Shown in pieces: positions 6,630 to 40,330 of a stretch of DNA of 64,000 nt (positions within the stretch are counted from its first letter, which is position 1; each line of letters begins with the position of its first letter). Source of the stretch: Flavobacteriales bacterium (GTDB lineage: Bacteria; Bacteroidota; Bacteroidia; Flavobacteriales_F; PHOS-HE28). Location: NCBI GenBank assembly GCA_019912395.1, contig JAIOIH010000026.1, forward strand, positions 20,812-84,811, given 5' to 3'. The notes below the pieces were generated by a model that made no database searches, was not told where the DNA came from, and saw nothing but the letters and a program-made list of their open reading frames with translations. A program made the translations under genes and the position numbers.

Positions 6630-6768
6630 TCCGCGTTATTCGGATATCGGGATGGTAAGCATGTTGCTCCAATGACCTCGTGTCAGTCGGGTAATGGTGC
6701 GTTCATCCGACTTTTCGGCACCGGGGGACTGGCGCGGCGTTGCGTGGTGATCTAAGTTAGCTCCGTCA

Positions 6769-8121: not shown

Positions 8122-9824
8122 CGGGCGATCGTTCCGCTACCGTGACGGTTAGTGCGAAAGGTCACTTCCACAGCGGTGCCTCCATCGTTCAAAATGCGCA
8201 GTGTGCCATCCAATTGATCGGCCAGGGCCTCCACCACTTCCAGGCCGAGGTGCGTGTCCTTCACCGATCGCGGATCGAGGCCTTTGCCGTTGTCCTTCAC
8301 CATCAGGATGAAGGAGCCATCGTCGGCAGTTCGTACCGTGATGGATATGTGGCCGCCTGTGGAGGGGAACGCATGTTGATGGCAGTTGGCGAGCAGCTCG
8401 CACAGGATCATGCCCAGCTGGATGCTGGTATCGGCATCGCATCGGATGCCTGCCGCATCCACACTGTGGCTCACCGAGCGGCTCTCCGGTTCGAACATGG
8501 CGGCAAGGGCCTTGGCCAGATCGTCGAGGAAAACACCCAGGTCCACGGCGGAAAGGTCCTTCTGGCGGTAGAGCTTATGGTGTACCAGGGCCATGGAATC
8601 GATCCGCCTCTTGCCGCGCATGAACTCGCTCCGGGCCTCAGCGCCGGGCACCCGCTGGGCCTGTAGGTTGAGCAGGCTGCTCACCACCTGCAGATTGTTC
8701 TTCACCCGGTGATGGACCTCACGGTCCAGCACTTCCCGCTCACCGATCGCTTGGGCCAAATTGCGGGCTTGCAGGTGTGAGCGGCGCTCCTGGCGCAGCA
8801 CGCGCCTTTCCGCGCTGCGGCTCTGGATGAACACCAGTGCCAGCATCAGGCCCAGCAACAGGAGCAGCCCCAGCACGGCCAGTAGGCCGATGCGCCCCTC
8901 GCCGATCCAGCGTTCAATACCCTCAAAGCCGATCAAGATCCCGGTATGGAATCGTGTACCGTTCAATTGCACGGGAATGATCCGCCCCACCCAGCGCTGA
9001 TCGCCCAACGAGGTCCGGAAGATGTTCGTGGAGTGGTCGGCACGCCGGTCGTTCAACACCTGCGTCCACACCCGCCCGATGGTGGAAGTGTCGATGAGGC
9101 TCAGGGAGCGCCATTTCGAGTCCAACAGCACGGTCGCGATGTCCGGTGTCCATTGGTTCAGGTCCGCCAGCATGGCATCCCCGGCGATGTCGAAGTGGAG
9201 GATCCCGAACGCTCCGTTGTCGGAATTCCTGCGGATGAGCATGGAGAGATGCAGGATCAGGGTCTCTCCGGGATCCTCGCTCTCGGACCACACCGGCCCA
9301 TCCTTCCGGTTCTCCAGTGCATGGCTGAACCAGATCGCTCCCCGGGGATCCGTCCGTGCAGGAACGGTATCCGGCAATGGCGGTTCCACGCCGTTGATGG
9401 GCCACAGGGTCATCAGCGTGAGCGGTTCGTCCGTGCTCCGGTCGCTCTTGATGAAGCGCCACTTGCTGCCCGCACGCTGAAGAACCCGTTCGTTGCCCTG
9501 ATCGTCGGACAGGCCGATGGCGCGGATGGCATAGCGGTTGCGCATCAGGGGCAGCCATCGCCGGAGCAGGGCGGCATCATCGATCGTATCCTCTTGCCTG
9601 ATCCGGTCGGCCTGCTGTTCCATGTCCCACGTGTAGGTGCGGGTGATCAACTTCACGCGTTCCTCCTGGCTCTCCAATGCCCGGGCCAGCATCAGCATTC
9701 CCAAGCGCTCACCGCGCTCCTTGGTATTGGCCAGTACACGGGCCAGCATGGCCAAAGTGAGGACCATCAGTACGGAGATACCGATGATCAGCCATCGCTC
9801 GGAGATGAACCAGGGTTTCGCCAT
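8118..9824 (-). CDS. Sensor histidine kinase (HisKA_2/HWE-like) with periplasmic sensor domain
   Basis: Two TM segments flank a roughly 280-aa periplasmic region. H-box EVHHRVKNNLQVVSSLLNLQ. HATPase_c G-boxes (VKDNGKGL, GLGLEVVEALADQL). No adjacent response regulator. Confidence 0.8.
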   Translation of the reverse strand: MAKPWFISERWLIIGISVLMVLTLAMLARVLANTKERGERLGMLMLARALESQEERVKLITRTYTWDMEQQADRIRQEDTIDDAALLRRWLPLMRNRYAIRAIGLSDDQGNERVLQRAGSKWRFIKSDRSTDEPLTLMTLWPINGVEPPLPDTVPARTDPRGAIWFSHALENRKDGPVWSESEDPGETLILHLSMLIRRNSDNGAFGILHFDIAGDAMLADLNQWTPDIATVLLDSKWRSLSLIDTSTIGRVWTQVLNDRRADHSTNIFRTSLGDQRWVGRIIPVQLNGTRFHTGILIGFEGIERWIGEGRIGLLAVLGLLLLLGLMLALVFIQSRSAERRVLRQERRSHLQARNLAQAIGEREVLDREVHHRVKNNLQVVSSLLNLQAQRVPGAEARSEFMRGKRRIDSMALVHHKLYRQKDLSAVDLGVFLDDLAKALAAMFEPESRSVSHSVDAAGIRCDADTSIQLGMILCELLANCHQHAFPSTGGHISITVRTADDGSFILMVKDNGKGLDPRSVKDTHLGLEVVEALADQLDGTLRILNDGGTAVEVTFRTNRHGSGTIAR

Positions 9825-14285: not shown

Positions 14286-15487
14286 CAGGGATGTTTGGTC
14301 AGTATGCCGCGAAGTTGCGTGGTTCCATGTTGGGCCTCCACTACATAACGGCCGGGAGACAAACGATTAACATCGATGGGCGAGCCGGTGTTCACCAACT
14401 CATCACGGACTGTGCGTCCCAACGCATCTATGATCCGGATGCGGGCAGCGGGCCATGTGGTGGGCCAGTTCGCCGTGATCGTGTGGGTTGCAGGATTCGG
14501 GTATACCTTGAGAGGAGCGCGCACCAGCTCTTCAATGCCGAAAACGAAGCCGTATGTGAACATTTCCGTACGCCTCACAAGGTCATTGTCGATCCCCGTA
14601 CCGATCACGTTGAAGTACCATCCTCCACCTCCTCCGGCGTAGGTCCCTGATGCGCCTCGCACGCCGTATGGCAGTGGGTCGATCATCTCGCTCCAAGAAT
14701 CTGCCACCGGGGCGTAGAAATATGCGTTCGCATGGAAAGTCGTGTCGTCCGATGCTCCCCCAACGATCCCAGTATCAATGTCCCTGAGAGGAGCAGCATC
14801 ATACCGAGGTTCGGGAAGTGGGGCCGCTGCTGTCCACTGGTCTGTGGTTGCATCGTACTTCCAAGTTTCAGCCAAAGCATTATATGCACTGTCCGCCCCA
14901 CCGATCACATACCCGAAAGATCCGGACTCGAAGCTTGTAGCACGATGACGAGCGACACCCGGCATGGCGGCCACTTGTGCCCACATGTCGGTCGCGGGAT
15001 CGTAGCTCCAGCACTCGTTGGTGGCCGTTCCTCCCGTGATGAGCCCTCCGACCACATAGGCTTTGTTCCCGATGGTGAATGCCGTGGAGGCATACCGTCC
15101 GGCAGCAGGCATCGAAGCGAGTTGCACCCAGTTATTGGTAGCCTCCGAGAAGGACCACAGTTCATCTAGCGGTCCGCTCGCGGAGAGCCCACCGAACAAA
15201 TATCCGTGGTCGCCAGAAGGAAAGTTGAAGCCAACGCAATACTGCCGGGGTTCCGCGGGCAGGTCGGGAACTGGGTACCATTGAGGGTTGCCGACGATAT
15301 CCAGCATCCACCAATCTGAAGTGAGTCCCCAGCCCGTTTCCATTCCCGTGCCGAAATACGCATGCGTCCCGATGGAGAAAGCGGCTGCGTCATCCCTTGC
15401 CGTTCCTGGGAAATCCGGCACTTGCAGCCAATATTGTGAATGGGCCTGGGAGGTGAACAGGAGAAGAAGGGGTAGGATGTGGCGCAT
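14285..15487 (-). CDS. Kelch / galactose-oxidase-like beta-propeller protein with T9SS C-terminal sorting domain
   Basis: Trimmed to the signal peptide MRHILPLLLLFTSQAHSQ. Repeated kelch-like blades (AYFGTG, GYLFGG, AYVVGG, GYVIGG). C-terminal KVYPNPATHTITANW...LSPGRYVVEA T9SS CTD. Confidence 0.7.
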   Translation of the reverse strand: MRHILPLLLLFTSQAHSQYWLQVPDFPGTARDDAAAFSIGTHAYFGTGMETGWGLTSDWWMLDIVGNPQWYPVPDLPAEPRQYCVGFNFPSGDHGYLFGGLSASGPLDELWSFSEATNNWVQLASMPAAGRYASTAFTIGNKAYVVGGLITGGTATNECWSYDPATDMWAQVAAMPGVARHRATSFESGSFGYVIGGADSAYNALAETWKYDATTDQWTAAAPLPEPRYDAAPLRDIDTGIVGGASDDTTFHANAYFYAPVADSWSEMIDPLPYGVRGASGTYAGGGGGWYFNVIGTGIDNDLVRRTEMFTYGFVFGIEELVRAPLKVYPNPATHTITANWPTTWPAARIRIIDALGRTVRDELVNTGSPIDVNRLSPGRYVVEAQHGTTQLRGILTKHP

Positions 15488-15567
15488 GCCCGAAGATTTC
15501 AAGTGTGATTCCTCCTCCATCGTGGTCCTGTATGCATGAGCTTCCCAGAGATGTGATGGCACGGCTA

Positions 15568-17814
15568 TTACAACTTCACAAAACGCGAAGTACGTGCACC
15601 TTCCGAACCAAAGGTGGTGATGGTGTAGGATCCGGCAGGAAGACCGGCGACATCCACGGCACCATCGTTTGGCATCCGCCCTTGTAGTACGCCTCGGCCA
15701 AAGAGGTCCTTGACCACATAGTTCACCGCATCGCTTCGCGTGATCATGTTGGTCCATAGCCGGTCCTGGGCTGGGTTGGGATAGACTCGCACCCCATGTT
15801 GGGATAACTCGGAAACCGCAGTCGCTAGCTGTACATGGAACACCGCTGGCGGAGTGGTGATCGGAGTATTGAAGTCGAAAACGATATGAGCCATGTTACT
15901 GATCGTCGTCCCGAGGGTCAGGTCGTCGTCGGGCAACAGGCTGAAGCTGACGAACCCTTGGCTATTCGCGGCATCACTGCTGCTGTCAGGCAAGTTGATG
16001 TTCTCAAGAAGGACGTAGAGCACTCCGTGATCAATGTACCAATGGTAGCTATGGCTGCCAGCGAGGAACCGGATGCTCTCTGCTCGCAGGCCGTCGGGCA
16101 GCGTATCTACGATGACCACACGTTCAGCCATATAGGTACCCGTGTTCTGGAAGCGCACCGTGTAGGTGATGGGCTTCTCGTTTGCCTGTACTTCGGATGG
16201 TGACATCACCGCAGGTGACAGGAGCTTGTCGTTCGGGTCGAAACTGCCCACCACAGTATCAGGGAACAGTATGAAATTGTTGGAAGGTGTTTCATCATCG
16301 GCATCGGGCAAGGCGCTCAGCATGTGGTCAATGGCTGTGCCCAAAGGCACGCTGGCCGCCGTGTTCAGGTCCACGGTCAGGCTTGCGGTGGCCCCTACGG
16401 CCATGGAGGGCAGGTTCCATACGGCGGTGTTGCCGGTCTGGGAGCTGGGGGCGATGGAACTGCCCACCCAAGTTTGGACCGCATCGTAGTTCAACACCAA
16501 CTGCGCATCCATGGGAACGGTGCCGAAATTGCGGCAGGAGAGATAGAGGCGATTGTCAAAGCCGGGCCGTGCGGGTTCAGCGTACAGGTGGGCTTGGAGG
16601 TCTTGGAGGCCGGAAATCAGCGTGACGGCGAAATCGTTCAGGGTGTCCGCATCACCCATTTCGGGCAAGCTCGCAGTATGCAGGGCGGGAGCTATGGCTT
16701 GGTAGTATGGATAGCTGGAGGCCGGAATGATGGTATAGTTGCCCGGTTGTACGCCCACAGTCCAACTCCCATCACTGTTGCATCCCACCATGTATCCGTT
16801 TGGATCCACCACTACGGATGCCCAGGGGAATGAAAGGTCATTTGGGCCGTACTGGCCATCGTTGTCCTGGTCGATAAATACGGTGCCTGATATGCCCGGC
16901 CCGATGCCGGGGCAATCCGTGTTCAGCACGGAACAGTAGGTAACCTCTTCGGGGCCGAAGTCCATGTATGAGATGGTACAGTATGGAAGGGATGCAGGCC
17001 AGTTGGGGATACAGGTCCATGCATCGATCCGCAAGGATGTCAACGTGTTGGGAAGCCATGGTAAACATAATTGAGGCGTATAGTTGGGCCAGATCCGGAG
17101 GTCAGTCATGCCTGTTGGCCAGGATAGATAGCTATACTCATTTCCACTCAAAAAGACCTTGCGGATCGATGCTGCGGACAGATCGACGGATACCGTGCCT
17201 CCGGTGGCGAGATACAGACTGTCGATAGTGGAAGGGGGCATCGTGAATGTGCTGTTGCTCCAGTTCGTGATGTAGAGATCTCCGATCTTGAAGAACCCTT
17301 CCCACTCCAACTGCCTGATGTACATAGCCCTCATGCTTTCAAGGCTGTCAGGCATGGTGGCGATATGGGCTGTAAGCCCCGGAGTTCCCAATCCTCCTAT
17401 CCAAAGCTCTTGCAGTCCAGCAGGCAAAGCATTCAGGTCTATCGACGTGAAGGAATAGACCAACAGTCTTTTCAGACCGGATGGCAAGCCGTTCAGGGAA
17501 AATGACACCGTGGTATCGAGGTATACGCTCATTGACAACGATTTCATCGCATGCAGGTACCTCAATCCGATGAATTCAATGGGCGCCGTATAATCATCGT
17601 ATGGAATGAAGAGGCTTACCGTATCCAGGGAAGCAATTCCCGAATTCAAGGTGTCCATGATCCCCACCCCGTCCACGATGCCGGGTATCAAGGTGTTTAG
17701 CATATGCCGTTCCACGGTGTCCGGAATGAAGACCTGAGCCTGGGCTTGTCCAAAAGCGGTAGCAAGCATCATGGTCAGAAAGGCGCGTGTGAGGAGGGTG
17801 TGGAGGTGCTTCAT
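15568..17814 (-). CDS. Large secreted leucine-rich-repeat-like protein with T9SS C-terminal sorting domain
   Basis: Signal peptide MKHLHTLLTRAFLTMMLATAFGQAQA. N-terminal repeats with LxxLxxLP patterns. C-terminal RVYPNPAQDRLWTNM...LPAGSYTITT CTD. 748 aa. Confidence 0.65.
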   Translation of the reverse strand: MKHLHTLLTRAFLTMMLATAFGQAQAQVFIPDTVERHMLNTLIPGIVDGVGIMDTLNSGIASLDTVSLFIPYDDYTAPIEFIGLRYLHAMKSLSMSVYLDTTVSFSLNGLPSGLKRLLVYSFTSIDLNALPAGLQELWIGGLGTPGLTAHIATMPDSLESMRAMYIRQLEWEGFFKIGDLYITNWSNSTFTMPPSTIDSLYLATGGTVSVDLSAASIRKVFLSGNEYSYLSWPTGMTDLRIWPNYTPQLCLPWLPNTLTSLRIDAWTCIPNWPASLPYCTISYMDFGPEEVTYCSVLNTDCPGIGPGISGTVFIDQDNDGQYGPNDLSFPWASVVVDPNGYMVGCNSDGSWTVGVQPGNYTIIPASSYPYYQAIAPALHTASLPEMGDADTLNDFAVTLISGLQDLQAHLYAEPARPGFDNRLYLSCRNFGTVPMDAQLVLNYDAVQTWVGSSIAPSSQTGNTAVWNLPSMAVGATASLTVDLNTAASVPLGTAIDHMLSALPDADDETPSNNFILFPDTVVGSFDPNDKLLSPAVMSPSEVQANEKPITYTVRFQNTGTYMAERVVIVDTLPDGLRAESIRFLAGSHSYHWYIDHGVLYVLLENINLPDSSSDAANSQGFVSFSLLPDDDLTLGTTISNMAHIVFDFNTPITTPPAVFHVQLATAVSELSQHGVRVYPNPAQDRLWTNMITRSDAVNYVVKDLFGRGVLQGRMPNDGAVDVAGLPAGSYTITTFGSEGARTSRFVKL

Positions 17815-17949
17815 GATATGTTAAAGTTAAATGCACAGGCGGCATTTGGCGGATACCTGTTCATCCACGATGCCCGGGTTCCGCCGTACAGGGCCCCCCC
17901 TACGAAAGCGCATTCCATTTTGTGGTTTTATGGCCGCCAAGTACCCCCG

Positions 17950-19677
17950 TCATTCCCGCTCGATCACGATCCGTTTTGAGAAAACACATCGATCCCTCTT
18001 CAAAAGCCTCAACACGTACAGGCCCTGGTTCAAGGAGGTCACATCCACAACCGGCCCCCACCGGGAGCGAAGGACCCTTCGTCCGACCACGTCGAAGATC
18101 TCGATCAGGCCCCCGTTCAGCTCCGGGCCCGCAGTGATCTCCAAACGGTCGCGGGCAGGATTGGGATGGACGGAAACGGGGAAAGCCGTCCGCTCCTCCA
18201 CGCCGACATCCAAATGGCCCAGCTTGGCGATGAAAATATCGCCCGTATAACCGCCATCAAAGGCATTGGTCAACGTGGTATTCCCCATTGCGATCTCGGG
18301 GCTGAAAAAGCTACCCCCTACGTACAGGTCCCCGTTCGGGGCGGCTGCCAGGGCCAGGGCCATGTCCGGCGCAAAGCCTCCGGCAGAATGTGCATAGTTG
18401 AATTCCCCTGCACTGTTCAGGTTCAGCACGTACATGTCCGTTCCACCGGCCGATGTCAGGTAGAACTCCGTTCCCGGGGCCGGGTCGAAATCAACCCTAT
18501 GGTTGAAGTAGGCGCAAGCGATCACATTGCCGCTGCCCGTGGGGTCCAGGACCAGCTTGCCACTGTATTCATCCCCGTGCGCGCCGAAACCTTTGGCCCA
18601 AATGGGTGCCCCGGAGCTATTGAGCTTTGCGATGAAGGCATCGAAGGCTCCTGCGGCGGTGAGCGTGGTGACGGCGGGGCTGGTATCAAAGTCCACCGTG
18701 TTCTGGAAGTTCCCTGCGAGGTATACATCATAGGGAGCCATTTGATCCACTACCACCGCCATCGCCATCTCGAACCCCATCCCTCCGAATTGCTTCGCCC
18801 ACACCAGGTCACCCTCGGCGCTCAACTTGTTCACGAACAGGTCGGTGCCGCCAACGGAAGTAAAGGTGTAGGTCGTGGCCAGGTCCGGGTCCATGTCAAT
18901 GGTCCCCTCGAAATAGCCAACGGTATACACACTGCCATCACCTGAGGGGCTGACCGCCATATCTCTCAGGGGGACTAAGTGAGCACTGGCCAGCGAACGT
19001 GCCCATACGAAGTGGCCGGCCGTATCCAGCTTCAGGATGAATGCGTCCGTGAGGCTATCGGGGTCCATCTCAAAAACACCGGGGCCGGGATCGAAATCGA
19101 GCGGGCCGGAGAAGCTGCCCGCGACGTAAACCGCCCCGTTCGCTGTATCGTCAATGGCCATGCTGGACCCGCCTTCATGGTCCGGCCCGCCAATAGCGAG
19201 GGCCCACACCAAGCTGCCTTGATCGGTGAACTTGGCAACAAAAATGTCATGCGAGCCAACGGAAGTTAGCTGGGTGATGCCGGGACCCGGGTCCATGTCG
19301 ATCGATCCGGTGAACAAGCCGGTCAAGTACACATGGCCATGGCTATCCGTCTTCACGGACGCCCCGGCCTTGTAGCCCGGACTTCCGAAGGATATCGCCC
19401 ACACCAGTTCCCCTACGCTGTTGAATTTCGACAGATAAATGCCCAGCCCCCCGTGTGAGCTCATGTTGTGCGCGGAAGGACCGGGGTCAAAGTCCACCGT
19501 TCCGATAAAATACCCGGTTGCATAGACGTTTCCCGAGGGATCGGTGGCAAGCGCGTAGCAATAGTCGGAATTGCTATCGCCCATGGAGACCGCCCAATCC
19601 CAGTTCGGCGCTTGTGCCTCGACCGATGCAGTGGAGAACAGGGCAACGCCGAGGGCTACTGGCAACGACCTGAACAT
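17950..19677 (-). CDS. SBBP (beta-propeller) repeat protein with T9SS C-terminal sorting domain
   Basis: Trimmed to the signal peptide MFRSLPVALGVALFSTASVEAQA. Many D-x-SGN-VY-xTGYF/SF SBBP-type repeats. C-terminal SVHPNPARDRLEIT...LNQGLYVLRL CTD. Confidence 0.7.
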   Translation of the reverse strand: MFRSLPVALGVALFSTASVEAQAPNWDWAVSMGDSNSDYCYALATDPSGNVYATGYFIGTVDFDPGPSAHNMSSHGGLGIYLSKFNSVGELVWAISFGSPGYKAGASVKTDSHGHVYLTGLFTGSIDMDPGPGITQLTSVGSHDIFVAKFTDQGSLVWALAIGGPDHEGGSSMAIDDTANGAVYVAGSFSGPLDFDPGPGVFEMDPDSLTDAFILKLDTAGHFVWARSLASAHLVPLRDMAVSPSGDGSVYTVGYFEGTIDMDPDLATTYTFTSVGGTDLFVNKLSAEGDLVWAKQFGGMGFEMAMAVVVDQMAPYDVYLAGNFQNTVDFDTSPAVTTLTAAGAFDAFIAKLNSSGAPIWAKGFGAHGDEYSGKLVLDPTGSGNVIACAYFNHRVDFDPAPGTEFYLTSAGGTDMYVLNLNSAGEFNYAHSAGGFAPDMALALAAAPNGDLYVGGSFFSPEIAMGNTTLTNAFDGGYTGDIFIAKLGHLDVGVEERTAFPVSVHPNPARDRLEITAGPELNGGLIEIFDVVGRRVLRSRWGPVVDVTSLNQGLYVLRLLKRDRCVFSKRIVIERE

Positions 19678-23702: not shown

Positions 23703-25514
23703 TCAATACGCATACTTTCCCTCCGCGATCAACTTCTTCGCGATCGCCTTCCGCAGCTCAGCGGTGTTCAGGTTCGTCGCTTTCGTGAAGCGCTTCGCAC
23801 CCATCAGCATCGCGCGCTGCTCATCGCCATCGGCGAAGTTGTTCACCGCCTCCTTCGCGTACTTGTGGATGCGGTCCGCCGCGTCGTGGATGTAGAGTTG
23901 GGTCATCGCCACCTGCTCCGCGATCGCAGCATCTCCCTTCATTCCTGCCAACTTCAAGGTGCGTAGCAAGGTGCTTTCCGCCAGGTAGGTGTCGATCACC
24001 ATGTCCGCGATGTGCATCAAGGTCTCCTGGTGCTTCGCCAGTTCAAGGCCCAGCTTCTGCGCGGCCCCACCGGCCACCATCAGCACGGCCTTCTTGAAGT
24101 TCGCCACCATGCGCTTCTCGTCGCCGAGGAGTGAATCATCCGGTTCCGGCATGTCGGGAATGCCCATCAGCTCCGCGGCCACGGCCTGCGCCGGACCCAT
24201 CAGGTCCAGTTGGCCCTTCATGGCGCGCTTCAGCAGCATGTCCACCGTGAGCATGCGGTTGATCTCGTTCGTGCCCTCGAAGATCCGGTTGATCCGGCTA
24301 TCGCGGTAGGCGCGCTCCACGGGGCTCTCGGCGCTATAGCCCATGCCGCCATAGATCTGCACGCCCTCGTCGCACACGTAGTCCAGGCACTCGCTCCCGG
24401 CCACTTTCAGGATGGCTGCTTCGGCCGCGTACTGCTCCACACCTTTCAGCAGGGCCTTCGCATGGTCCGCACCGCCGGCCTTCAGTTCCTCGATCGCGCG
24501 CTCCATGTCCTGGCTGCAGCGGTAGGTCGCGCTTTCCACCACATAGCAGTAGGTCGCTTGGTCGGCGAGCTTCTGGCGGATCGCACCGAACGAACTGATC
24601 GGACGCCCGAATTGCTGCCGCTCGTTGGCATATTTCACGCTCATGTCCACAACGGCCTTTGCCCCGCCCAGAGCGGCACCTGAAAGTTTGATTCGACCGA
24701 TGTTCAGGATGTTCACCGCGATCTTGAAACCGTTGCCGCGCTCGCTCAGCATATTCTCCACCGGCACCTTGCAATCGTTGAAGAACACCTGGCGCGTACT
24801 GCTGCCCTTGATCCCCATCTTCTTCTCCTCCGGGTTCAGCGTGATGCCACCGAAGTCCTTCTCCACAATGAAGGCGCTGAGGTTCTTGTCGGGCTCGCCG
24901 GTCTTGGGGTCCACCACCTTGGCGAACACCGTGAAGATGTCCGCAAAGCCACCGTTGGTGATCCACATCTTTTGGCCGTTCAGGAGGTAGTGCTTGCCGT
25001 CATCGCTCAGCACCGCCTTGGTCTTCCCGCTATTGGCATCGCTGCCGGCGCCGGGCTCGGTGAGGCAGTAGGCGGCCTTCCACTCGCCGGTGGCCAGCTT
25101 GGGGATGTACTTCTGCTTCTGTTCCCCGGTTCCGTAATAGAGGATCGGAAGCGTGCCGATGCCGGTATGTGCCGCGATGGCCACGCTGAAACTATGTCCG
25201 GCCCCGGTCACTTCCGTCAGCAACATGGTGGTCACGAAGTCCTTGCCGAAGCCGCCGAACTCTTCCGGCAAGGAGATGCCCAGCAGCCCGAGTTCACCGG
25301 CCTTTTCAAGCAAACTCTGCATGAGGCCCTCCTCCATGGAATCGATGCGGTCCAAATTGGGCCATACGTTCTGTTCCAGGAATTCACGGGCGCTCTGTGC
25401 GATCATGCGCTGCTCCTCATTGAATTCCTCGGGGATGAAAATCTCCTGCGGATCGCTTTCGCGTATCAGGAACTCACCACCTTGAAGAGCTTTGGTTCTG
25501 GTCTCGTTCGCCAT
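23703..25514 (-). CDS. Acyl-CoA dehydrogenase (long, about 600 aa FadE-like)
   Basis: 603 aa. ACAD N/M/C domains (YCLTEPGAGSD, GQKMWITNGGFAD). C-terminal extension typical of large ACADs. Confidence 0.9.
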   Translation of the reverse strand: MANETRTKALQGGEFLIRESDPQEIFIPEEFNEEQRMIAQSAREFLEQNVWPNLDRIDSMEEGLMQSLLEKAGELGLLGISLPEEFGGFGKDFVTTMLLTEVTGAGHSFSVAIAAHTGIGTLPILYYGTGEQKQKYIPKLATGEWKAAYCLTEPGAGSDANSGKTKAVLSDDGKHYLLNGQKMWITNGGFADIFTVFAKVVDPKTGEPDKNLSAFIVEKDFGGITLNPEEKKMGIKGSSTRQVFFNDCKVPVENMLSERGNGFKIAVNILNIGRIKLSGAALGGAKAVVDMSVKYANERQQFGRPISSFGAIRQKLADQATYCYVVESATYRCSQDMERAIEELKAGGADHAKALLKGVEQYAAEAAILKVAGSECLDYVCDEGVQIYGGMGYSAESPVERAYRDSRINRIFEGTNEINRMLTVDMLLKRAMKGQLDLMGPAQAVAAELMGIPDMPEPDDSLLGDEKRMVANFKKAVLMVAGGAAQKLGLELAKHQETLMHIADMVIDTYLAESTLLRTLKLAGMKGDAAIAEQVAMTQLYIHDAADRIHKYAKEAVNNFADGDEQRAMLMGAKRFTKATNLNTAELRKAIAKKLIAEGKYAY

Positions 25515-25631: not shown

Positions 25632-26264
25632 TTATTCGGCATCAGGTTTCCGGAACGCACAAAAGAGGAAGTTTTGGATCTTATGGGTCGGTGTCTCGTG
25701 GTCCACCGTGATGCACTTGATCTTAGTGCAGACCTTCCCCAACCGAGCGGTCATTTCAGCTTCGCTATAGCGGTGGACGGGGATCCCGCTGCACTTCTCC
25801 GGTCCGTTCTCGCTGAAGGTCGCCAGGATCAACAGCCCACCGGGGGCCAAGTACTTCGACAATTTCCCCAAGTAGTCCTCCACCTCCTGATCCGTGGTCA
25901 GGAAGTGGAACACGGCGCGATCATGCCAGACATCGAAGGGAGCTGTGGCCTCGAAGTCCGTGGCGCTGGCCTCTATCCATTCCACCGCGTTGGCGCGGTC
26001 GCCCAGGCGGTTTTGCGCTTTCTCCATGGCCTTGCCGCTGATGTCCAGCACGGTGAGGTCCGTGAATCCCCGGTCCAGCAGATGGTCCACCAGCAGGCTA
26101 TCGCCACCGCCGATGTCGATGATCCGCGCATCGCTGCGTACCCCGTATTCAGCGAAGAGGTCCAACGAGACCTTGGGCATGGCCTGGAACCAGCTCACGT
26201 CCTGTGGGCCCTTCTTGGCGTAGAGGTCCTCCCAATGCGTCCTGGGGTCGAAGGTGGTGCTCAT
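25632..26264 (-). CDS. Class I SAM-dependent methyltransferase
   Basis: IIDIGGGDSLLVDHL (motif I), DLTVLDIS, FDVWHDRAVFHFL. 210 aa. Confidence 0.7.
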   Translation of the reverse strand: MSTTFDPRTHWEDLYAKKGPQDVSWFQAMPKVSLDLFAEYGVRSDARIIDIGGGDSLLVDHLLDRGFTDLTVLDISGKAMEKAQNRLGDRANAVEWIEASATDFEATAPFDVWHDRAVFHFLTTDQEVEDYLGKLSKYLAPGGLLILATFSENGPEKCSGIPVHRYSEAEMTARLGKVCTKIKCITVDHETPTHKIQNFLFCAFRKPDAE

Positions 26265-26510: not shown

Positions 26511-27686
26511 TCAATTCAACAACTCAAAAACACTCGCCGCTCCCTGCCCCGTCCCTACGCACATCGTCACCACGCCGTACTTCTGCTTGCGGCGCCGCAT
26601 CTCATTGAACAACTGCACGCTCAGCTTCGCCCCGGTACAACCCAACGGGTGTCCCATCGCAATGGCTCCACCATTCACATTGACTATTGCCGGGTCCAGG
26701 CCCAACTCGCGGATCACGGCGAGGCTCTGGCTCGCGAAGGCCTCGTTCAACTCGAACTGCTCGATGTCCTGCAGCTTCAGCCCGGCCTTTTCAATGGCCT
26801 TCGGCACGGCGGCCACCGGACCGATGCCCATGATGCGCGGCTCCACGCCGGCCACGTGGTAGGAGAGGAGGCGCGCGATCGGCTTCACGCCGAGTTCCTT
26901 CAGCATGCGCTCGCTCACCACCAGCACGAAGGCCGCGCCATCGCTGGTCTGGCTCGCGTTGCCCGCCGTCACCGTCCCCTTCGCATCGAACACCGGACGC
27001 AGTTTCGCCAGGCCCTCGATCGTGCTCGCGCGCGGACCTTCATCGGTATCCACGATGTACTTCTCCACCTGGCGCTTCTCCTTCGCATCCAGGAACACGC
27101 GCTCCACTTCGAAGGGCACGATGTCGTCCTTGAAACGCCCGGCGGCGATGGCGGCCAGCGCCTTCTCGTGGCTCTTCAGGCTAAAGGCATCCTGGTCCTC
27201 GCGGCTCACCTTGTAGTCGCGCGCCACGGCCTCGGCGGTAAGGCCCATGCCCCAGTACCACGTCGGGTGCTCCTTGCCCACCCTGGCGTTCGGCACAATG
27301 CGCCAGCCACCGAAGGGGATCGGGCTCATGCACTCCACGCCACCGGCCACAATGCAATCGGCTTGGCCGCTGTGGATCTTCGCACTCGCGATCGCGATGG
27401 TCTCGCTGCCGCTGCTGCAATAGCGGTTCACCGTCATGCCCGGCACCTTGTCCGTGTCCAGGCCCATCAGGCTGATCATGCGGCCGATGTTCAGGCCCTG
27501 CTCCGCCTCGGGCGTCGCGTTGCCCACGATCACATCGTCGATGCGCTCCTTGTCCAAGCCCGGGACGGAGTTCACGAGGTGTCTCACCACATGGGCTCCG
27601 AGGTCGTCGGGTCGTGTGAAGCGGAACTTTCCTCGGGGTGCCTTTCCGACGGCGCTTCTGTACGCGGCAATGATGTATGCATTCAT
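26511..27686 (-). CDS. Acetyl-CoA C-acyltransferase (thiolase)
   Basis: 391 aa. Thiolase active-site regions (NRYCSSGSETI, GGVECMS, CVGTGQGAA). Confidence 0.92.
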   Translation of the reverse strand: MNAYIIAAYRSAVGKAPRGKFRFTRPDDLGAHVVRHLVNSVPGLDKERIDDVIVGNATPEAEQGLNIGRMISLMGLDTDKVPGMTVNRYCSSGSETIAIASAKIHSGQADCIVAGGVECMSPIPFGGWRIVPNARVGKEHPTWYWGMGLTAEAVARDYKVSREDQDAFSLKSHEKALAAIAAGRFKDDIVPFEVERVFLDAKEKRQVEKYIVDTDEGPRASTIEGLAKLRPVFDAKGTVTAGNASQTSDGAAFVLVVSERMLKELGVKPIARLLSYHVAGVEPRIMGIGPVAAVPKAIEKAGLKLQDIEQFELNEAFASQSLAVIRELGLDPAIVNVNGGAIAMGHPLGCTGAKLSVQLFNEMRRRKQKYGVVTMCVGTGQGAASVFELLN

Positions 27687-28201
27687 GATGTTGTTACCGG
27701 ATCACCGGTGGAATTTCGTTTGTGTTCTTTGGGGCGTGCCCCTCGCAAAGCCTAGGGTCGCGCTCTCCGCTGTACTCCTCGGCCGGATTACCGGCCTGCG
27801 GGGTGCCGCTGCGATCGCTCACGCGGAATGCAGGTTGTTGTCGGCGGTGAGCACCGGTATGTTGTGTCGGTGGTGCGATATGGAGAACTGTGGTATGCAC
27901 CGCCGAAGAGGTAAACGATTGAGATTCAGGGAGTTTCAGAATGGTCCCTCCGGTTATGTCAAGATCTCTCCCTCGATATGGAGAGTTGAAAGAGGGGCGG
28001 GACGAGGTGTTTTGGGAGATCGAGGGGGGGATATGGAGAAGAGAGGACTTGGAGGTGTGTTCTTTAATGCTTTGATATTCAGTGAGATGTGCCGGGGGTG
28101 CCCGGAATATGTCAATTCTCGGCCCCTGATATGGTGAACAACATGTATGCACCGGTGCCGGTTGGTGCAATTCCCATCTGATAGGCATATGTTGGCACCG
28201 T

Positions 28202-29911
28202 TCATTCATGGGCGGCTCGTAGTTGAGCAAAGGCCTCATTCACCAACGCGCTACCTCGAAGGTTGGCCAATGTGGGCGACAGGGAATAGCGCGTACCCTT
28301 AAGCTTTCCACTGGAGGTCACAACGCGGTCTTCAATGAGGCGCTGGAGAACACTGCGCAACTGACTGCGTGAAAGCACTGCTTCCATGACCGGTGCTAGT
28401 TCTCCGATCTTCTTGTCCCCATCCTGTAAGGCAACGATGATCGGTTCGATCTCGTATGTGATGTACCGCTTGCCGATCCGCAAGCCATCGCTGACCATCT
28501 GATAGTACTCGTCGTGTAACTGGTATCGCTTCGCAGAGTGGTGCGGCTTGGTGACCAAGCCGATCGCCAGCAACTGGTCCACGATCGGTTGGTTCAAGCT
28601 TTGGAACATGCTGTTCCGGATCTTGCAGAGCGTGATGATCTGTTCCACTCCCAACTTCGGTTCCTTGTCGCTCAGCTGATAGCGATTGATGAACACATGA
28701 AAGGCTTTGTCTATGACTGTACAGGAGAGTGACAGGGTTACTTGAAACGGGTCCGAGGCGCTGTAGTCAGGCTCTGCCTTGCCTTCTGAAAGCGTGATTG
28801 AGAAAATCTTGTCCACACCTTGGCCGCTGCGCTCCACGAGACCGGTCTTCTCCATCACCTCGGTCATCAGGCGGCTACGCGGGGTGCTGCTGACGGTAAG
28901 CAGGTTCTCCAGCGTAACGCCCTTCGGGAATCCTCCTGGGTTGTTGACCACGATCCGCTCTGGATACTGCTTCACCACAACTTCGCTCTGAATGGTGTAG
29001 TCCCGGTGAGCCACAGCGTTCAACAGCGCCTCTCGGATTACCGATTCGTTCAGGCTGAAGATGTCGAAGATGTACGAGCCGAACTGAACCGGGGTTTTCC
29101 GATTCAGCCGTGGGTCATTGATGGCATCCCATACAAGATCGATCACCTTGTACACCGGACCTTCGAAGACATCACGAGAATCGTGATGGATCTGTGTGTC
29201 CTCATTGCGGAACTCACGGATGATCCTGCTCTGTGGAAGATGCTGCCCTATGGCTTCCACCTTGCCAAGCAGGATGAGTGCTGCATAAGTCAGCCCTTGT
29301 GCGGTCGAAAGTCCGAGGTCGCTCAGTATCTGCTCGAGGCTGAGCGTCGCAAAAGCCGGGTTCTTCTGCTTCTTTGCATAGGCGGCCTTCATGCGCTCCA
29401 CGGCTTCAAGGTCAAGGTCGCTGATGGTGAGGCCTCTGCAGATCTTTGCGGAGAAGTCTGGCTCTTGCTCAGATAATACGCTCAGCAGTTCGTCATCGGA
29501 CATCGGCCTTAGGCTATCGCCGGTCCGCATCAGAGCAACTCCCTCGAACTTCAAGGTCTTGCCTATTGGTCGGGGCGGTACCTTGAAGATCACTACACGG
29601 TTGACCCCTTCGAACAGCTCGCTTATGTGCACCCGCATCCGGTGGTGCTGGTAGATGGCATCTTCCATTTCGCCAACCTTCCTAAGACCGAACTCTGATC
29701 CAACGACTTCATGTGGCCATGCGTTGGTCATTCCCAGGACCAGCATTCCACCGCCTTCGTTCGCCAACGCTGCTACATAACCCAACACGCATTTACGTCG
29801 CTCACCGGGGTCAGCATGACTGCTGCCATTGAAGGGAAAGTTCCGCTTGGCCTCCTTAAACTCAACGCGGTCCTCTGACTCTTTCAGAAGCTTTAGCTGC
29901 TCAATGGTCAT
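28202..29911 (-). CDS. AlbA_2 (Schlafen-like) + HATPase_c_4 putative DNA-binding ATP-binding protein. This family is often mis-annotated as RecG-like.
   Basis: Trimmed to MTIEQLKLLKESEDRVEFKEAKRNFPF (AlbA_2 N-terminus). Central NAVAHRDYT motif of HATPase_c_4. C-terminal winged-helix-like region. Visibly lower GC and A/T-ending codons compared with flanking genes. Confidence 0.7.
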   Translation of the reverse strand: MTIEQLKLLKESEDRVEFKEAKRNFPFNGSSHADPGERRKCVLGYVAALANEGGGMLVLGMTNAWPHEVVGSEFGLRKVGEMEDAIYQHHRMRVHISELFEGVNRVVIFKVPPRPIGKTLKFEGVALMRTGDSLRPMSDDELLSVLSEQEPDFSAKICRGLTISDLDLEAVERMKAAYAKKQKNPAFATLSLEQILSDLGLSTAQGLTYAALILLGKVEAIGQHLPQSRIIREFRNEDTQIHHDSRDVFEGPVYKVIDLVWDAINDPRLNRKTPVQFGSYIFDIFSLNESVIREALLNAVAHRDYTIQSEVVVKQYPERIVVNNPGGFPKGVTLENLLTVSSTPRSRLMTEVMEKTGLVERSGQGVDKIFSITLSEGKAEPDYSASDPFQVTLSLSCTVIDKAFHVFINRYQLSDKEPKLGVEQIITLCKIRNSMFQSLNQPIVDQLLAIGLVTKPHHSAKRYQLHDEYYQMVSDGLRIGKRYITYEIEPIIVALQDGDKKIGELAPVMEAVLSRSQLRSVLQRLIEDRVVTSSGKLKGTRYSLSPTLANLRGSALVNEAFAQLRAAHE

Positions 29912-30050
29912 GCGCAATAGGTGTTTCGCGTGAGCGATTGAAGCGGAAAGCCCACAGCGAGGAACGAGCGAGGACTTGCAGCGGAAAGCGCGACGGCGAG
30001 TCTTCGAGCCGGCACGCCCAAACAACTAACGCTATGTTTCACCGCGTTCA

Positions 30051-32411
30051 TCAGTTGCGAAGCACCTTACCAGTTGTGATAATTGACTGAAGCCTTTCGA
30101 GCGTCTTGCGTTGCATACAGAGCTCCAGGAACGCCTTCCGCTCCAGATCCAACAAGTACTGCTCACTCACTTCCGTGATCTCGCTCAGGTCCCCACCGGC
30201 CAGCACGTAGCCCAGCTTCTGCGAGATCAGGGTGTCGTGTTCGCTGATGTAGTTGCCGCTCTGCATGCTGTTGGCGCCTACGTACACGATGCCCAGCGCT
30301 TCCTTGCCGAGCACCTTGATATTCTTGCGCATCGGTGGCTGGGTGTAGCCTTTGTTGGCCATGTCCAGCGCGCAGGCTTTGGCGTGGGCAAGCTGATGTT
30401 GGCGGCTCACGATCACTTCGTCCTGGCCTTCGCGCAGGTAGCCGAGTGCGAATGCCTCATGCCCGCTGGTGGCCACCTTGGCCTGACCGATGGTGAGGAA
30501 GCGATCGCGGAAACGGTTGATGCGCATGTCGCCCTCGTGCAGTTCGTCGCTGAGGCGCAGTGCGAATTCCTTGCTGCCGCCGCCGCCGGGGATCACGCCC
30601 ACACCGAATTCCACGAGACCCATGTAGGTCTCGGCGTGTGCTACCACCTTGTCGGCGTGCATGCTCAATTCGCATCCACCGCCTAGTGCGAGCTGGTGCG
30701 GCGCGGCCACCACGGGGATGGCGCTGTGCCGCATGCGCATCATGGTGTTCTGGAAGGTTCGGATGGCCATGTCCAGGTCGTCGTACTCCTGCTCCACGGC
30801 CATCATGAAGATCATGCCCACGTTGGCGCCCGCACTAAAGTTCGCGCCGTCGTTGTACACCACGAGGCCTTTGTAGCCGCCTTCCGCAAGGTCGATGGCC
30901 TTGTTGAGGCCTTGGATCACCTCCGCGCCGATGGTGTTCATCTTGCTCGTCCAGCTCACGCACAGGATGCCGTCGCCGAGATCGCGCACCACGGCCTGGC
31001 TGTTCTTCCAGACGATGCTGCTCTCGGGCAGATCCGACAGCACCAGCACGCCTTCTGCACGCGGGATCGCTTTGTAGCTCTTGCTCGCCGCATCATAGTA
31101 CATGCGCTTGCCGCCTTCGGTCTTGTAGAAGGACGTGTGGCCCGCAGCAAGCATTTCGGCTACCCATGGTGACACCCCAATGCCCGCAGCCTTCATGGCG
31201 TCCATTGCCTTCTTCACACCAACCGCGTCCCAGGTCTCGAACGGCCCCAACTCCCAGCCGAAGCCGGCGCGCAGGGCATCGTCGATCTTGTAGAGCTCGT
31301 CGGTGATCTCGGGGATCCGATGGCTCACGTACGCGAACAATCCGTGGAAGCTCTTGCGGTAGAACTCGCCGGCCTTGTCGCTGCCGTCGTAAAGGATCGT
31401 CATCCGCTTGCGCAGGTCGTCCTCCTTCTTTGCCGCGTCCATGGTGGCGAACTTGGGCTTCACTTGTGAGCGGTATTCCAGCGTCTTCAGGTCCAGCGCC
31501 ATGATCTCGCCCTTGTTCGCGCGGTCCTTGAAGAAGAAGCCCTTGCCGGTCTTGCTGCCGAGCATGTTCTTGTCGACCATCTGCTGCAAGTAGCCGGGGA
31601 TGGTGAAGAGCGCGTTCTGCTCGTCGGTCGGGCAGTTGTCCTTTACGCCCTGCGCGACTTTCACCAGCGTGTCCAGGCCGACAACGTCGGCTGTGCGGAA
31701 GGTGGCGCTTTTCGGGCGGCCCAATGCTGGACCGGTCAAACGATCGACCTCTTCCACGGTGAGGCCCATCTCTTCCACCAGGTGGAACAGGCCCATGATG
31801 CCGAACACGCCGATGCGGTTCGCGATGAAGGCGGGCGTATCCTTGCACAGCACGGTGACCTTGCCGAGCACGCGCTGGCCGTAGTCCTCCAGGAAGCTGA
31901 GCACCGCGGGATCCGTATCCGGACCGGGGATCAGCTCCAGCAAAGGCAGGTAGCGCGGCGGGTTGAAGAAGTGCGTGCCGCAGAAGTGCTTTCGGAAATC
32001 TTCACTACGTCCTTCGGCGATCGCGTGGATCGGAATGCCGCTTGTGTTCGTGGTGATCAGCGTGCCGGGCTTCCGGTGCTTCTCCACGTTCGCCAGCACC
32101 TGCTGCTTGATGTCCAGTCGCTCGATCACCACCTCGATGATCCAGTCGCAATCCTTGATCTTGGAGAGGTCGTCCTCGAAGTTGCCGGTTGTGATCCGGC
32201 TCGCAAAGGCCTTGTCGTAGATGGGGGAGGGGTTGCTCTTCAGCGCGAAGGCCAAGGCATCGTTGACGATCTTGTTCCTGTCGTCACCTTCCTTCGGGAC
32301 GATATCCAGTAGCAGCACTTCCGCGCCCACATTGGCGAAGTGGCAGGCGATGCGTGAGCCCATGACACCGGATCCGAGGACGGCCACTTTCTTGATATGT
32401 CTGTTTGGCAT
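30051..32411 (-). CDS. Bifunctional 3-hydroxyacyl-CoA dehydrogenase / enoyl-CoA hydratase (FadB/FadJ-like)
   Basis: 786 aa. Rossmann VAVLGSGVMGSRIA. C-terminal crotonase-fold region. Confidence 0.9.
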   Translation of the reverse strand: MPNRHIKKVAVLGSGVMGSRIACHFANVGAEVLLLDIVPKEGDDRNKIVNDALAFALKSNPSPIYDKAFASRITTGNFEDDLSKIKDCDWIIEVVIERLDIKQQVLANVEKHRKPGTLITTNTSGIPIHAIAEGRSEDFRKHFCGTHFFNPPRYLPLLELIPGPDTDPAVLSFLEDYGQRVLGKVTVLCKDTPAFIANRIGVFGIMGLFHLVEEMGLTVEEVDRLTGPALGRPKSATFRTADVVGLDTLVKVAQGVKDNCPTDEQNALFTIPGYLQQMVDKNMLGSKTGKGFFFKDRANKGEIMALDLKTLEYRSQVKPKFATMDAAKKEDDLRKRMTILYDGSDKAGEFYRKSFHGLFAYVSHRIPEITDELYKIDDALRAGFGWELGPFETWDAVGVKKAMDAMKAAGIGVSPWVAEMLAAGHTSFYKTEGGKRMYYDAASKSYKAIPRAEGVLVLSDLPESSIVWKNSQAVVRDLGDGILCVSWTSKMNTIGAEVIQGLNKAIDLAEGGYKGLVVYNDGANFSAGANVGMIFMMAVEQEYDDLDMAIRTFQNTMMRMRHSAIPVVAAPHQLALGGGCELSMHADKVVAHAETYMGLVEFGVGVIPGGGGSKEFALRLSDELHEGDMRINRFRDRFLTIGQAKVATSGHEAFALGYLREGQDEVIVSRQHQLAHAKACALDMANKGYTQPPMRKNIKVLGKEALGIVYVGANSMQSGNYISEHDTLISQKLGYVLAGGDLSEITEVSEQYLLDLERKAFLELCMQRKTLERLQSIITTGKVLRN

Positions 32412-32523: not shown

Positions 32524-32958
32524 TCATTTGAAGAGTTCATCGTTGTCGAGCAACGTGTTGATCTTGTTCATCACGCTGTGGAAGGTCTGGAGCTGCGCCG
32601 CCGGGATGCTGGCGCGCACAGCCTCATTGAAGCGGATCACGGTATCCTTGCTCACGTCCCGCATCTGCTTGCCCTTGGCCGTGAGTTTCACCCGGCTCAT
32701 GCGTCCGTCGGAACTGTCGGGCACGCGCTTGATCAGCCCTTCCTTCTCCATGTTCTTCAGTGTCCGCGAGAGGCTGCGGGACTCCATGCCCATCTTGGGC
32801 CCCAGCTTGGTACTGGGCGTGCCTTCGGGATCGATGTTCAGCAGCACGTAGCCGATGCTCATGGAGCCGCCGTGCTCGGAGGCTTTCTCGTTGTAGCGCC
32901 GCATGATGCGATGCCAGGCCCAGCGGATCGGGTGGTCGATGGTGTCTTCGGGGCGCAT
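32524..32958 (-). CDS. MarR-family transcriptional regulator
   Basis: Trimmed to MRPEDTID. Winged-HTH ...LSRTLKNMEKEGLIKRVPDSSDGRMSRVKLTAKG. Divergent from or leading the fad genes. Confidence 0.75.
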   Translation of the reverse strand: MRPEDTIDHPIRWAWHRIMRRYNEKASEHGGSMSIGYVLLNIDPEGTPSTKLGPKMGMESRSLSRTLKNMEKEGLIKRVPDSSDGRMSRVKLTAKGKQMRDVSKDTVIRFNEAVRASIPAAQLQTFHSVMNKINTLLDNDELFK

Positions 32959-33083
32959 GGATGGCAAAGGTCCGAAGGTAATCAGGAAAAAGGTATGCAC
33001 GCATACCATGTGCGCGCTTCGGGGCGCTTTGGAAGTCTGTTCAGCAGCGTTCCAAGGCCAGGTGCGGAATGCAGCGCGATCGC

Positions 33084-39927: not shown

Positions 39928-40322
39928 GGGGCCGACATGGTTTCGACAGCGGCTACGTAGTGCGTGTAAGCATGCAGAGCATTGAGGATGACGCTCTTTA
40001 AACTCGATCTTCAAGCCTTAACCGGCAACACTGAGTACGCACTTGCTGCCTAATAGCCCAAGGCTATGAAGCTTCACCCCGTGAACAACAGTAGCGGGGG
40101 CAAGTACCCCTCGGGGAGGCCCGCAACCCTCCTTCCCGGCCCAGGGGTATCATCATGGGAAGCTGGTCAGCGCGGTGGTCCGAAGCGCTGATGAGACAAC
40201 AGGACCTAAGTTGTCAGTAGGGTGTCCTTTCCCGGCTGGCTCTCGAAAACCAACGAAGGAAGAAGCATGTGGAAAGCTCGTGGTACGGTCGTTTGGACGA
40301 GGGTTCGAATCCCTCCGGCTCC
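39928..40322 (+). ncRNA. ssrA: tmRNA (ssrA)
   Basis: 5' end GGGGCCGACATGGTTTCGACAG. Tag reading frame GGC AAC ACT GAG TAC GCA CTT GCT GCC TAA TAG gives GNTEYALAA with double stop (about 40024-40056). 3' tRNA-like domain GGACGAGGGTTCGAATCCCTCCGGCTCCA. Acceptor pairing has a G3:U70 wobble, the Ala identity element. Confidence 0.9.
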
Positions 40323-40330
40323 ACTCGCCT

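Follow-up and report, generated by a model that had tools for sequence, protein, structure and literature searches.

A conserved Schlafen/AlbA_2–GHKL gene and its motif array in a repeat-bounded slot of a Flavobacteriales fad operon

The stretch of DNA analysed here, referred to as 'the window', comprises 64 kb from a Flavobacteriales bacterium (contig JAIOIH010000026.1); coordinates given without a locus name are those of the window. Its fad operon is interrupted, between the fadB and thiolase genes, by an insertion that occupies a replaceable slot delimited by two inverted repeats resembling the Rfam motif Flavo-1. The cargo of the slot is a two-part module: a gene for a protein with Schlafen/AlbA_2, GHKL and winged-helix domains and, downstream of it, an array of short sequence motifs. 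In other Bacteroidota, an orthologous gene and array stand as the final unit ahead of hsdR in type I restriction–modification (R–M) operons. The R–M partner has been lost from the fad-locus lineage, in which gene, array and repeats all continue under purifying selection. The best joint explanation, which we favour tentatively and as falling somewhat short of an even chance, is that the module is nuclease-inactive, binds nucleic acid, and has been co-opted, or is tolerated, in the fad operon. Our analysis follows up an initial annotation of the window, which was a model's reading of the letters and of a list of open reading frames (ORFs).

THE INSERTION AT THE fadB–THIOLASE JUNCTION

The slot and its borders comprise the following genes and features:

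30051–32411, minus strand: gene for a FadB-type protein (3HCDH+ECH; Pfam 3HCDH_N, 3HCDH and ECH_1; NCBIfam FadB)
30051–30053, minus strand: fadB stop codon, the upstream border of the slot
28202–29911, minus strand: AlbA_2/HATPase_c_4 gene, 569 amino acids (aa), with SLFN_AlbA_2, GHKL and tandem winged-helix domains
26511–27686, minus strand: thiolase gene (acetyl-CoA C-acyltransferase; Pfam Thiolase_N and Thiolase_C; NCBIfam), the downstream border of the slot

The gap between fadB and the thiolase gene measures 2364 nucleotides (nt) and contains one gene and a 515-nt stretch of untranslated appearance, much as the initial annotation had described it (about 2.36 kb, with one gene and a 0.5-kb stretch). 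The further claim, that an insertion splits a normally tight junction, is upheld by synteny and by an empty site. In the related locus L065, the fadB TGA and the thiolase ATG are separated by 8 nt, and BLASTN joins window position 30051 directly to position 27695; the insertion is therefore 27696–30050 (2355 bp). Compared with this empty site, no target-site duplication is visible at the insertion junctions.

Related loci are given L numbers, and 80 of them were fetched with FadB as the query. Both gene ends could be scored in 74 Bacteroidota loci, among which the fadB–thiolase gap is at most 150 nt in 41, 151–700 nt in 25 and more than 700 nt in eight, all but one of these eight belonging to the window's own high-GC clade. 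Many of the 151–700-nt gaps are accounted for because a small gene, encoding a four-helix bundle of the 23S_rRNA_IVP family, occupies them. By tblastn, this gene lies inside the fadB–thiolase gap of approximately 27 of the 80 loci (e.g. L026, 10439–10807), and the junction is a long-standing landing site for the IVP gene family (loci L018–L082). The same gene also occurs in the gap between the thiolase and acyl-CoA dehydrogenase genes of seven loci.

The composition of the inserted segment is suggestive of transfer, but is not decisive alone. Its GC content is 0.550, against a window mean of 0.598 (standard deviation 0.021, 2355-bp windows), which places it among the lowest 3.7% of equal-sized windows. 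GC at third codon positions (GC3) is 0.68 in the AlbA_2 gene and 0.82–0.85 in five operon neighbours, and so the bias in GC and codon use relative to the flanks that was claimed at the outset is real. Low GC alone is not proof of transfer, because two other stretches of the window, 15200–18000 and 51300–55400, have GC as low as the insertion. These code for surface proteins sorted by the type IX secretion system (T9SS; Kelch, DUF7619 and Por_Secre_tail domains) and for outer-membrane beta-barrel proteins.

FLAVO-1-LIKE REPEATS AND THE SLOT

Two structured repeats flank the cargo:

29917–30036, no strand assigned: left Flavo-1-like structured repeat, approximately 120 nt, an inverted copy of 27717–27838 (nhmmer E 2e-31)
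27717–27838, no strand assigned: right Flavo-1-like structured repeat, inverted relative to the left copy and adjoining the thiolase side

The 139 nt that separate the fadB stop from the AlbA_2 start are taken up by the left repeat. The pair are imperfect inverted copies that reach both ends of the insertion, and no further copy is present in the 64-kb window. Against Flavo-1 (Rfam RF01705) the left repeat scores 33.3 bits (E 1.4e-4), the right 30.5 bits (E 8e-4), and those of relatives 31–39 bits; all of these lie below the gathering score of 42 bits, and the match is visible only at an E-value threshold. The repeat core aligns to the whole of the 76-nt model and has the same nested helices. 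The slot repeats differ from Flavo-1 in being longer, having an outer GCGTG/CACGC stem and a variable hairpin in addition, and in coming as inverted pairs around cassettes. From these alignments, it is plausible that the slot repeat is a high-GC variant of Flavo-1. Flavo-1 itself is a computational motif without known function (Weinberg 2010, PMC2864571), and its matches can lie in either orientation with respect to transcripts (PMC9723704).

Selection on the structure of the repeat is apparent from the alignment of 25 copies, in which 97.9% of cells in the nested helices are paired. Nine of the 19 helix pairs show compensatory changes on both sides, and the covariation score is 0.259, compared with 0.056 for shuffles (none of 500 reach the observed value) and 0.006–0.031 for slid controls. 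Only one cell in 472 is a G-U pair. This near-absence of G-U suggests that the structure is important in both strands and so at the level of DNA.

Searches with an iterated nhmmer profile found the repeat in all close relatives, mostly as an inverted pair in the fadB–thiolase gap. Such pairs bracket other cargo in several of these: a 238-aa ORF in L009, AbiEi and AbiEii in L010, and unknown ORFs in L004, L013 and L016. KilA-N, IVP and other small genes sit outside the repeat pairs. The junction, in other words, is a hot spot where relatives carry other defence-type genes. The right repeat and the thiolase gene of the window (27831–26511) align as one block to L010 13115–14445, where the cargo is AbiE, and repeat subtypes are specific to position; the repeats belong, therefore, to the slot and not to any given cargo. 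Around the IVP genes of low-GC relatives, a search for Flavo-1 gave one unrelated match in 147 kb, and so the repeat-bounded slot is specific to the high-GC clade. The repeat core had zero matches among viral contigs. The insertion first proposed thus stands, although that picture was incomplete, containing neither the flanking inverted repeats nor the hot-spot nature of the junction.

Two loci carry duplicated gene ends directly before a Flavo-1-like repeat: the 3' end of fadB (aa 722–786) in L094, at 989–1183, and the 3' end of the thiolase gene (last 80 nt) in L010, at 14885–14964. To judge from their positions, these look like the footprint of insertion, with recombination anchored in the flanking genes. 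The left repeat of L012 hosts nested extra cargo (a 330-aa ORF and a partial repeat), and the same nesting occurs in L095/96.

THE AlbA_2–GHKL–WINGED-HELIX PROTEIN

A search with hidden Markov models (HMMs) confirmed both of the domains attributed to the protein initially, each above its cut-off: HATPase_c_4 (PF13749) at 57.5 bits against 26, and SLFN_AlbA_2 (PF04326; residues 15–137) at 30.5 bits against 25.3. The ATPase is of the GHKL kind, with a Bergerat fold in which the N-box Asn and the Gly-rich boxes are present. The AlphaFold model of the 569-aa protein has a predicted local distance difference test (pLDDT) score of 88.9. Structural matches to its N-terminus are the N-domains of SLFN13, SLFN5, SLFN11 and SLFN14 and the DNA-binding domain of SAMD9; those to its C-terminus are winged helices of the ArsR, MarR and Z-alpha kinds. 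The family is large, with 8426 clusters (50% identity) matching at E ≤0.001, and among 44 diverse members the residues E11, E17, K19, N51, R129, D152, E294, N298, H302, R303, G326, R345 and G365 are invariant.

One residue of the predicted nuclease site departs from the rest of the family:

29723–29725, minus strand: AAC codon for Asn63, where the 'GVxD' motif has its conserved acidic residue, the predicted catalytic Asp

Asn63 aligns to D249 in the 'GVDD' of SLFN14, and to the 'GVDD' of SLFN13, in register with the glutamate of E-F-K (E211 of SLFN14, which is mutated in PDB 9UIE). Of 41 other family members, 39 have D or E at the position of Asn63; all fad-locus copies have N there, and the R–M-linked and rbfA-linked copies all have D. 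In Avs9, the site comprises E14, D19, D45 and E65, and the mutation D45N abolishes toxicity (PMC12680541). The spacing between N63 and E83, 20 residues, equals that between D45 and E65 of Avs9. Of a Schlafen-type RNase site, then, the window protein has E11, E17 and E83, and Asn63 in place of the Asp, as judged by alignment and spacing of the unsuperposed site. By analogy with Avs9, the fad-locus lineage appears to carry a natural counterpart of the engineered inactivating mutation, and the predicted nuclease site of the fad-locus copies looks inactive. The ATPase motifs, the winged helices and the motif array all stay conserved in the Asn63 lineage.

PADLOC-DB 2.0 gave no full-length system match, only partial matches to pAgo/Aga fusion models (E 1e-11 to 6e-7). 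Plasmid and phage collections contained distant homologs only (23–49% identity), without informative annotation, and a metagenome scan with the protein yielded only six loci, of use in the analysis but too few for a census.

THE MOTIF ARRAY AND ITS SPACER

Between the AlbA_2 gene and the right repeat lies a spacer with four copies of a short motif, here listed in the direction of transcription:

27839–28201, minus strand: conserved 363-nt spacer, C-rich on the sense strand, with the motif array and further conserved blocks (alignments)
28128–28138, minus strand: motif copy 1, TTCACCATATC, with a degenerate partner, TTGACATAT, 23 nt downstream
28030–28040, minus strand: motif copy 2, TTCTCCATATC (motif scan)
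27975–27985, minus strand: motif copy 3, CTCTCCATATC, with a partner, TTGACATAA, 23 nt downstream
27877–27887, minus strand: motif copy 4, TTCTCCATATC (motif scan)

The initial annotation took this 0.5-kb region for a non-coding spacer; far from being filler, it contains a conserved motif array that accompanies the gene. A span of 260 nt contains four copies of TTCTCCATATC (≤1 mismatch), whereas the expectation for the entire 64 kb is 0.72. The motif family has the consensus (A/T)TTCTC(C/T)RTAT, and the spacer also carries the conserved block TTGACATA twice. Similar arrays, of 4–10 copies each, lie in the gap that immediately follows the stop codon in each of the nine R–M-linked orthologs, and the window resembles this group in having its sense-strand array (27877–28138) downstream of the stop codon. 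Antisense copies are absent from eight of the nine R–M spacers, and number two in L092. Motif density in the R–M spacers is 12–27 per kb, against a background of 0.4–1.3. The motifs are 97 and 56 nt apart in R–M spacers and 98, 55 and 98 nt apart in the window, with pairs 21 nt apart; the sequence between the motifs is not conserved between the two kinds of spacer. In the R–M operon of L100, TTCTCY arrays occur on both sides of the AlbA_2 gene (6685–6896 and 8720–8952), which is flanked there, too, by a duplicated pair of DUF3800 and small-ORF genes.

The fad-locus spacers are 69–82% identical in nucleotide sequence and 357–367 nt long, whereas at 4-fold degenerate sites in the neighbouring gene identity is only 41–57%. 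Because length is kept and identity exceeds that of the 4-fold sites, the spacer is under selection. RNAalifold gave no covariation support for an RNA structure in the spacer (covariation term +1.12).

A long frame also crosses this region:

27694–28239, minus strand: open frame of 181 codons; its ATG overlaps the AlbA_2 stop (ATGAATGA), and it ends 7 nt short of the thiolase ATG

No stop interrupts this frame in any of the six fad-locus copies, the other frames having 3–11 stops. It has no Pfam match, its identity is flat across codon positions, the ratio of nonsynonymous to synonymous substitution rates (dN/dS) is 0.46–0.89, and in R–M loci it is not consistently open. With this non-coding-like pattern of substitution, the proposal that the spacer is an ordinary protein gene was not sustained; it is possible that the frame is a translated 'bridge'. 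The sense strand of 27694–28239 is rich in C and poor in G (C 0.33, G 0.22); if the region is untranslated, such a composition would be expected of a Rho loading site. The region has no Bacteroidota −7 motif (TAnnTTTG).

ORTHOLOGS IN TYPE I R–M OPERONS

Orthologs with 60–63% identity to the window protein were examined at eight loci, and all eight lie inside type I R–M operons, seven of them directly before hsdR. The order of genes in these operons is hsdM, sometimes Fic, hsdS, variable cargo, the AlbA_2 gene, hsdR, and a gene for a YgjP-like protein. The cargo between hsdS and the AlbA_2 gene is of many kinds (e.g. TIR, cyclase with PycTM, Abi_C, protein kinase with DUF3010, DUF3800 and DUF4917). 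Together with Fic, these TIR, Pycsar-like and Abi_C neighbours agree with the initial view that the family is associated with defence. Among the loci L090–L093 and L100–L103, the strain-variable cargo includes a guanylate-cyclase-like gene with PycTM and a second, 584-aa AlbA_2 paralog, and a YgjP-like metallopeptidase gene always follows hsdR.

The window copy does not share the position before hsdR: no hsd genes accompany it, and tblastn found none of hsdR, hsdM, hsdS or YgjP in the window or the spacers. The idea that the spacer is a decayed hsdR was rejected, the tblastn search of the spacers with hsdR being negative.

Homologs with 72–77% identity form a third type of locus, in the order rbfA, methyltransferase, AlbA_2 gene and FtsX permease. 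The AlbA_2 copy at rbfA/FtsX has no flanking repeats.

AGE AND SELECTION

The insertion is old, and its gene is functional and under purifying selection. The same slot is occupied in seven lineages: those of the window, L012 (frameshifted), L014, L084, L085, L094 and L095/96. AlbA_2 protein identity to the window copy is 76–91%, in parallel with FadB and thiolase. Among intact copies dN/dS is approximately 0.05, in all three domain blocks including AlbA_2, and synonymous divergence (dS) ranges from 0.9 to saturated. Recent acquisition and decay are both contradicted by this flank-like divergence, low dN/dS and high dS. The original proposal of a horizontally acquired insertion is correct, accordingly, as to the insertion, but the acquisition is not a recent one. 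In L012 (10277–11997), the AlbA_2 gene is frameshifted after approximately codon 60.

Presence of the gene in all relatives at native GC had been named beforehand as a reason to doubt an insertion. Ten other loci of the close clade lack the gene, as do all of the more than 60 distant Bacteroidota loci, and its GC3 is below that of the operon.

WHAT THE MODULE MIGHT DO

In our favoured explanation, the fad-locus protein would no longer cleave nucleic acid, given Asn63 in its predicted site, and would bind the motif array beside its own gene in an ATP-dependent manner, by way of its winged helices, its AlbA_2 domain, or both. In R–M operons, binding to the array would gate the next gene, hsdR. 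In the fad operon, the module most likely modulates, or must permit, read-through to the thiolase and acyl-CoA dehydrogenase genes; we propose an effect on these two because the array sits between the AlbA_2 gene and the thiolase gene. The cargo of the slot would be gained and lost by recombination in or beside the flanking repeats and genes. That the array persists where the catalytic residue is gone speaks for a binding role rather than a toxin-neutralising role or a pure nuclease effector. Among the functions suggested by the initial annotation, this favours the regulator, and the simple nuclease or abortive-infection effector is disfavoured by the presence of Asn63 in all fad-locus copies.

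Several points weigh against this explanation. The only characterised relative, TrlG, acts as a growth-arrest factor and not as a regulator (PMC7554251). The rbfA–FtsX homologs keep the Asp and yet are without the array, and so the array is not obligatory for the family. The equivalence of residue 63 rests on alignment and spacing rather than on superposition of active sites, and Asn63 might retain some activity. Scans for sigma-70 promoters and terminators gave nothing above chance; the three consensus matches are all on the plus strand and none is on the minus strand, that of the operon. Co-transcription of the operon is thus an assumption, no promoter- or terminator-like signal having been found on the minus strand in the region.

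Chief among the rivals, although on balance unlikely, is an active, stand-alone defence or abortive-infection effector that senses infection and arrests growth like TrlG or Avs9, acting through its ATPase or a still-competent nuclease site, and whose place in the fad operon is incidental. The company kept by the family makes this attractive: bacterial AlbA_2 clades are all enriched near defence systems, and the AlbA_2 domain of Avs9 is toxic (PMC12680541); TrlG, with the same two Pfam domains, arrests growth (PMC7554251); orthologs occur among TIR, Pycsar-like and Abi_C genes in R–M operons; the slot of relatives holds AbiE and KilA-N genes; and purifying selection is strong. An effector of this kind is hard to reconcile, however, with Asn in place of the predicted catalytic Asp in all fad-locus copies, the very change that inactivates Avs9, or with the lack of an R–M partner in the window. 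It matches no PADLOC model beyond parts of pAgo/Aga fusion proteins, and defence genes do not usually stay so stably in a single slot across many species. That the array and the Schlafen-like RNase form a pair like those of type III toxin–antitoxin (TA) systems, the array RNA sequestering the enzyme or being processed by it, is very unlikely. Sense-only motifs repeated beside a putative RNase gene do recall such pairs, and L092 and L099 have true tandem repeats (of approximately 65 and 137 nt, respectively). But the array lies downstream of the gene, not upstream as the RNA gene of type III TA systems does, and in place of near-identical tandem units mostly just the ~11-nt motif is conserved amid variable spacers. 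RNAalifold detected no covariation in the spacer, and the array is kept in a lineage without the catalytic Asp.

Other alternatives concern the origin of the insertion. It might be a selfish, non-autonomous mobile cassette in which the Flavo-1-like repeats, mobilised in trans, would serve as terminal inverted repeats and the gene would be no more than cargo, with no role for the host operon. Inverted repeats of ~120 nt stand exactly at both ends of the insertion, as in transposons and miniature inverted-repeat transposable elements (MITEs), and similar pairs surround other cargos; pairing almost free of G-U (1/472) points to a DNA-level hairpin, as in repetitive extragenic palindrome (REP) or attC-type elements, and Flavo-1 matches lie on either strand relative to transcripts (PMC9723704). 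We nonetheless judge a mobile cassette quite improbable. The empty site reveals no target-site duplication, the right repeat stays with the thiolase gene when the cargo differs, and repeat subtypes are position-specific. Nor are there copies at multiple loci: the unit is found in this slot only, the copy at rbfA/FtsX is without repeats, the 64-kb window has no other repeat copy, and no transposase lies inside. Divergence in parallel with the flanking genes would also be expected of an ancestral member of the fad operon that was lost elsewhere. This origin is scarcely credible, being contradicted by the synteny survey: the gene is missing from more than 60 distant Bacteroidota loci and from ten of the close clade, the gap at the empty site is just 8 nt, GC3 is 0.68 against 0.84, and the nearest outgroup orthologs are in R–M operons.

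Beyond the favoured explanation, we can envisage two linked and more far-reaching readings, rather unlikely to hold jointly. In one, the AlbA_2–GHKL–winged-helix protein and its array would be a portable 'gate', the controller of the restriction subunit in Bacteroidota type I R–M systems, transplanted in nuclease-dead form to a place before the thiolase gene. In the other, the abundant motif Flavo-1 would be not a small RNA but a structured, DNA-level boundary of exchangeable cassette slots in operons.

RELATION TO KNOWN SYSTEMS

The closest precedent in architecture is TrlG, the sole member of the AlbA_2/HATPase_c_4 architecture with a phenotype. In Photorhabdus laumondii, the temperature-restricting locus (TRL) is a three-gene operon that causes growth arrest at 36 °C, in which TrlG is partnered by a PHP phosphatase and a small regulator (TrlF–TrlG–TrlR; PMC7554251). 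TrlG has the same two Pfam domains as the window protein in the same order, AlbA_2 at the N-terminus and HATPase_c_4 in the middle; the likeness is one of architecture. The slot contains no genes for a PHP/histidinol-phosphatase or a small regulator, its neighbours being fadB and the thiolase gene, and for TrlG, unlike the window locus, no motif array has been described. A relative of TrlG on plasmid pYR3 adjoins type I R–M fragments.

With respect to the nuclease domains of SLFN11, SLFN13, SLFN14, SAMD9 and Avs9, the window protein differs in its third acidic residue, which is Asn, and in its C-terminal partners, which are GHKL and winged-helix domains rather than a helicase or a STAND NTPase. 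DIP2311 of Corynebacterium diphtheriae (PDB 3LMM), an uncharacterised structural-genomics target with 19–20% identity, keeps the Asp ('GIED').

The anticodon nuclease PrrC sits between hsdS and hsdR of EcoprrI. The R–M-linked orthologs are likewise embedded in the operon beside hsdR, and by analogy this position suggests that they may be functionally coupled to restriction. PrrC belongs to an unrelated protein family, and the window copy differs further in having no R–M genes around it.

The protein family, its association with defence and the Flavo-1 motif were already known. In the literature searched, there was no description of the motif array, of the fixed place before hsdR, or of the Asp-to-Asn lineage, and none of Flavo-1-like pairs bounding a cassette slot in a metabolic operon. 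In the very large, defence-linked AlbA_2/HATPase_c_4 family only TrlG has been functionally characterised, and the locus offers three testable handles on this family: a conserved cognate motif array, a fixed place before hsdR, and a natural lineage under strong selection in which the Asp has been replaced. An orphan Rfam motif gains a concrete genomic behaviour, that of inverted pairs bounding a cassette slot. And a core metabolic operon, as this locus shows, can host a long-lived hot spot for defence-type genes with its downstream genes retained.

OTHER FEATURES OF THE LOCUS

All six genes of the fad cluster are on the minus strand. Those not listed above are:

32524–33009, minus strand: MarR gene
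25632–26264, minus strand: S-adenosylmethionine (SAM)-dependent methyltransferase gene
23703–25514, minus strand: acyl-CoA dehydrogenase gene

The methyltransferase gene occupies a second variable slot, between the thiolase and acyl-CoA dehydrogenase genes. Among relatives, only L013 and L014 have it there; others have 1–4 kb of other material in this slot, or none, and in L009 the two genes are adjacent. A relationship between this methyltransferase and that of L089 was considered and rejected, the two being unrelated.

Identity to the window MarR is 57–60% in L004–L010 and 83–88% in L012–L014 and L065. For FadB the order is reversed, with 84–87% in L004–L010 and 80–81% in L012–L014 and L065. 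These opposed splits suggest that recombination has taken place inside the fad locus.

At the gathering score, a transfer-messenger RNA (tmRNA) gene is the sole Rfam match in the window:

39928–40326, plus strand: tmRNA gene, tag peptide GNTEYALAA

A tmRNA gene also lies near the fad cluster in L009 and L010.

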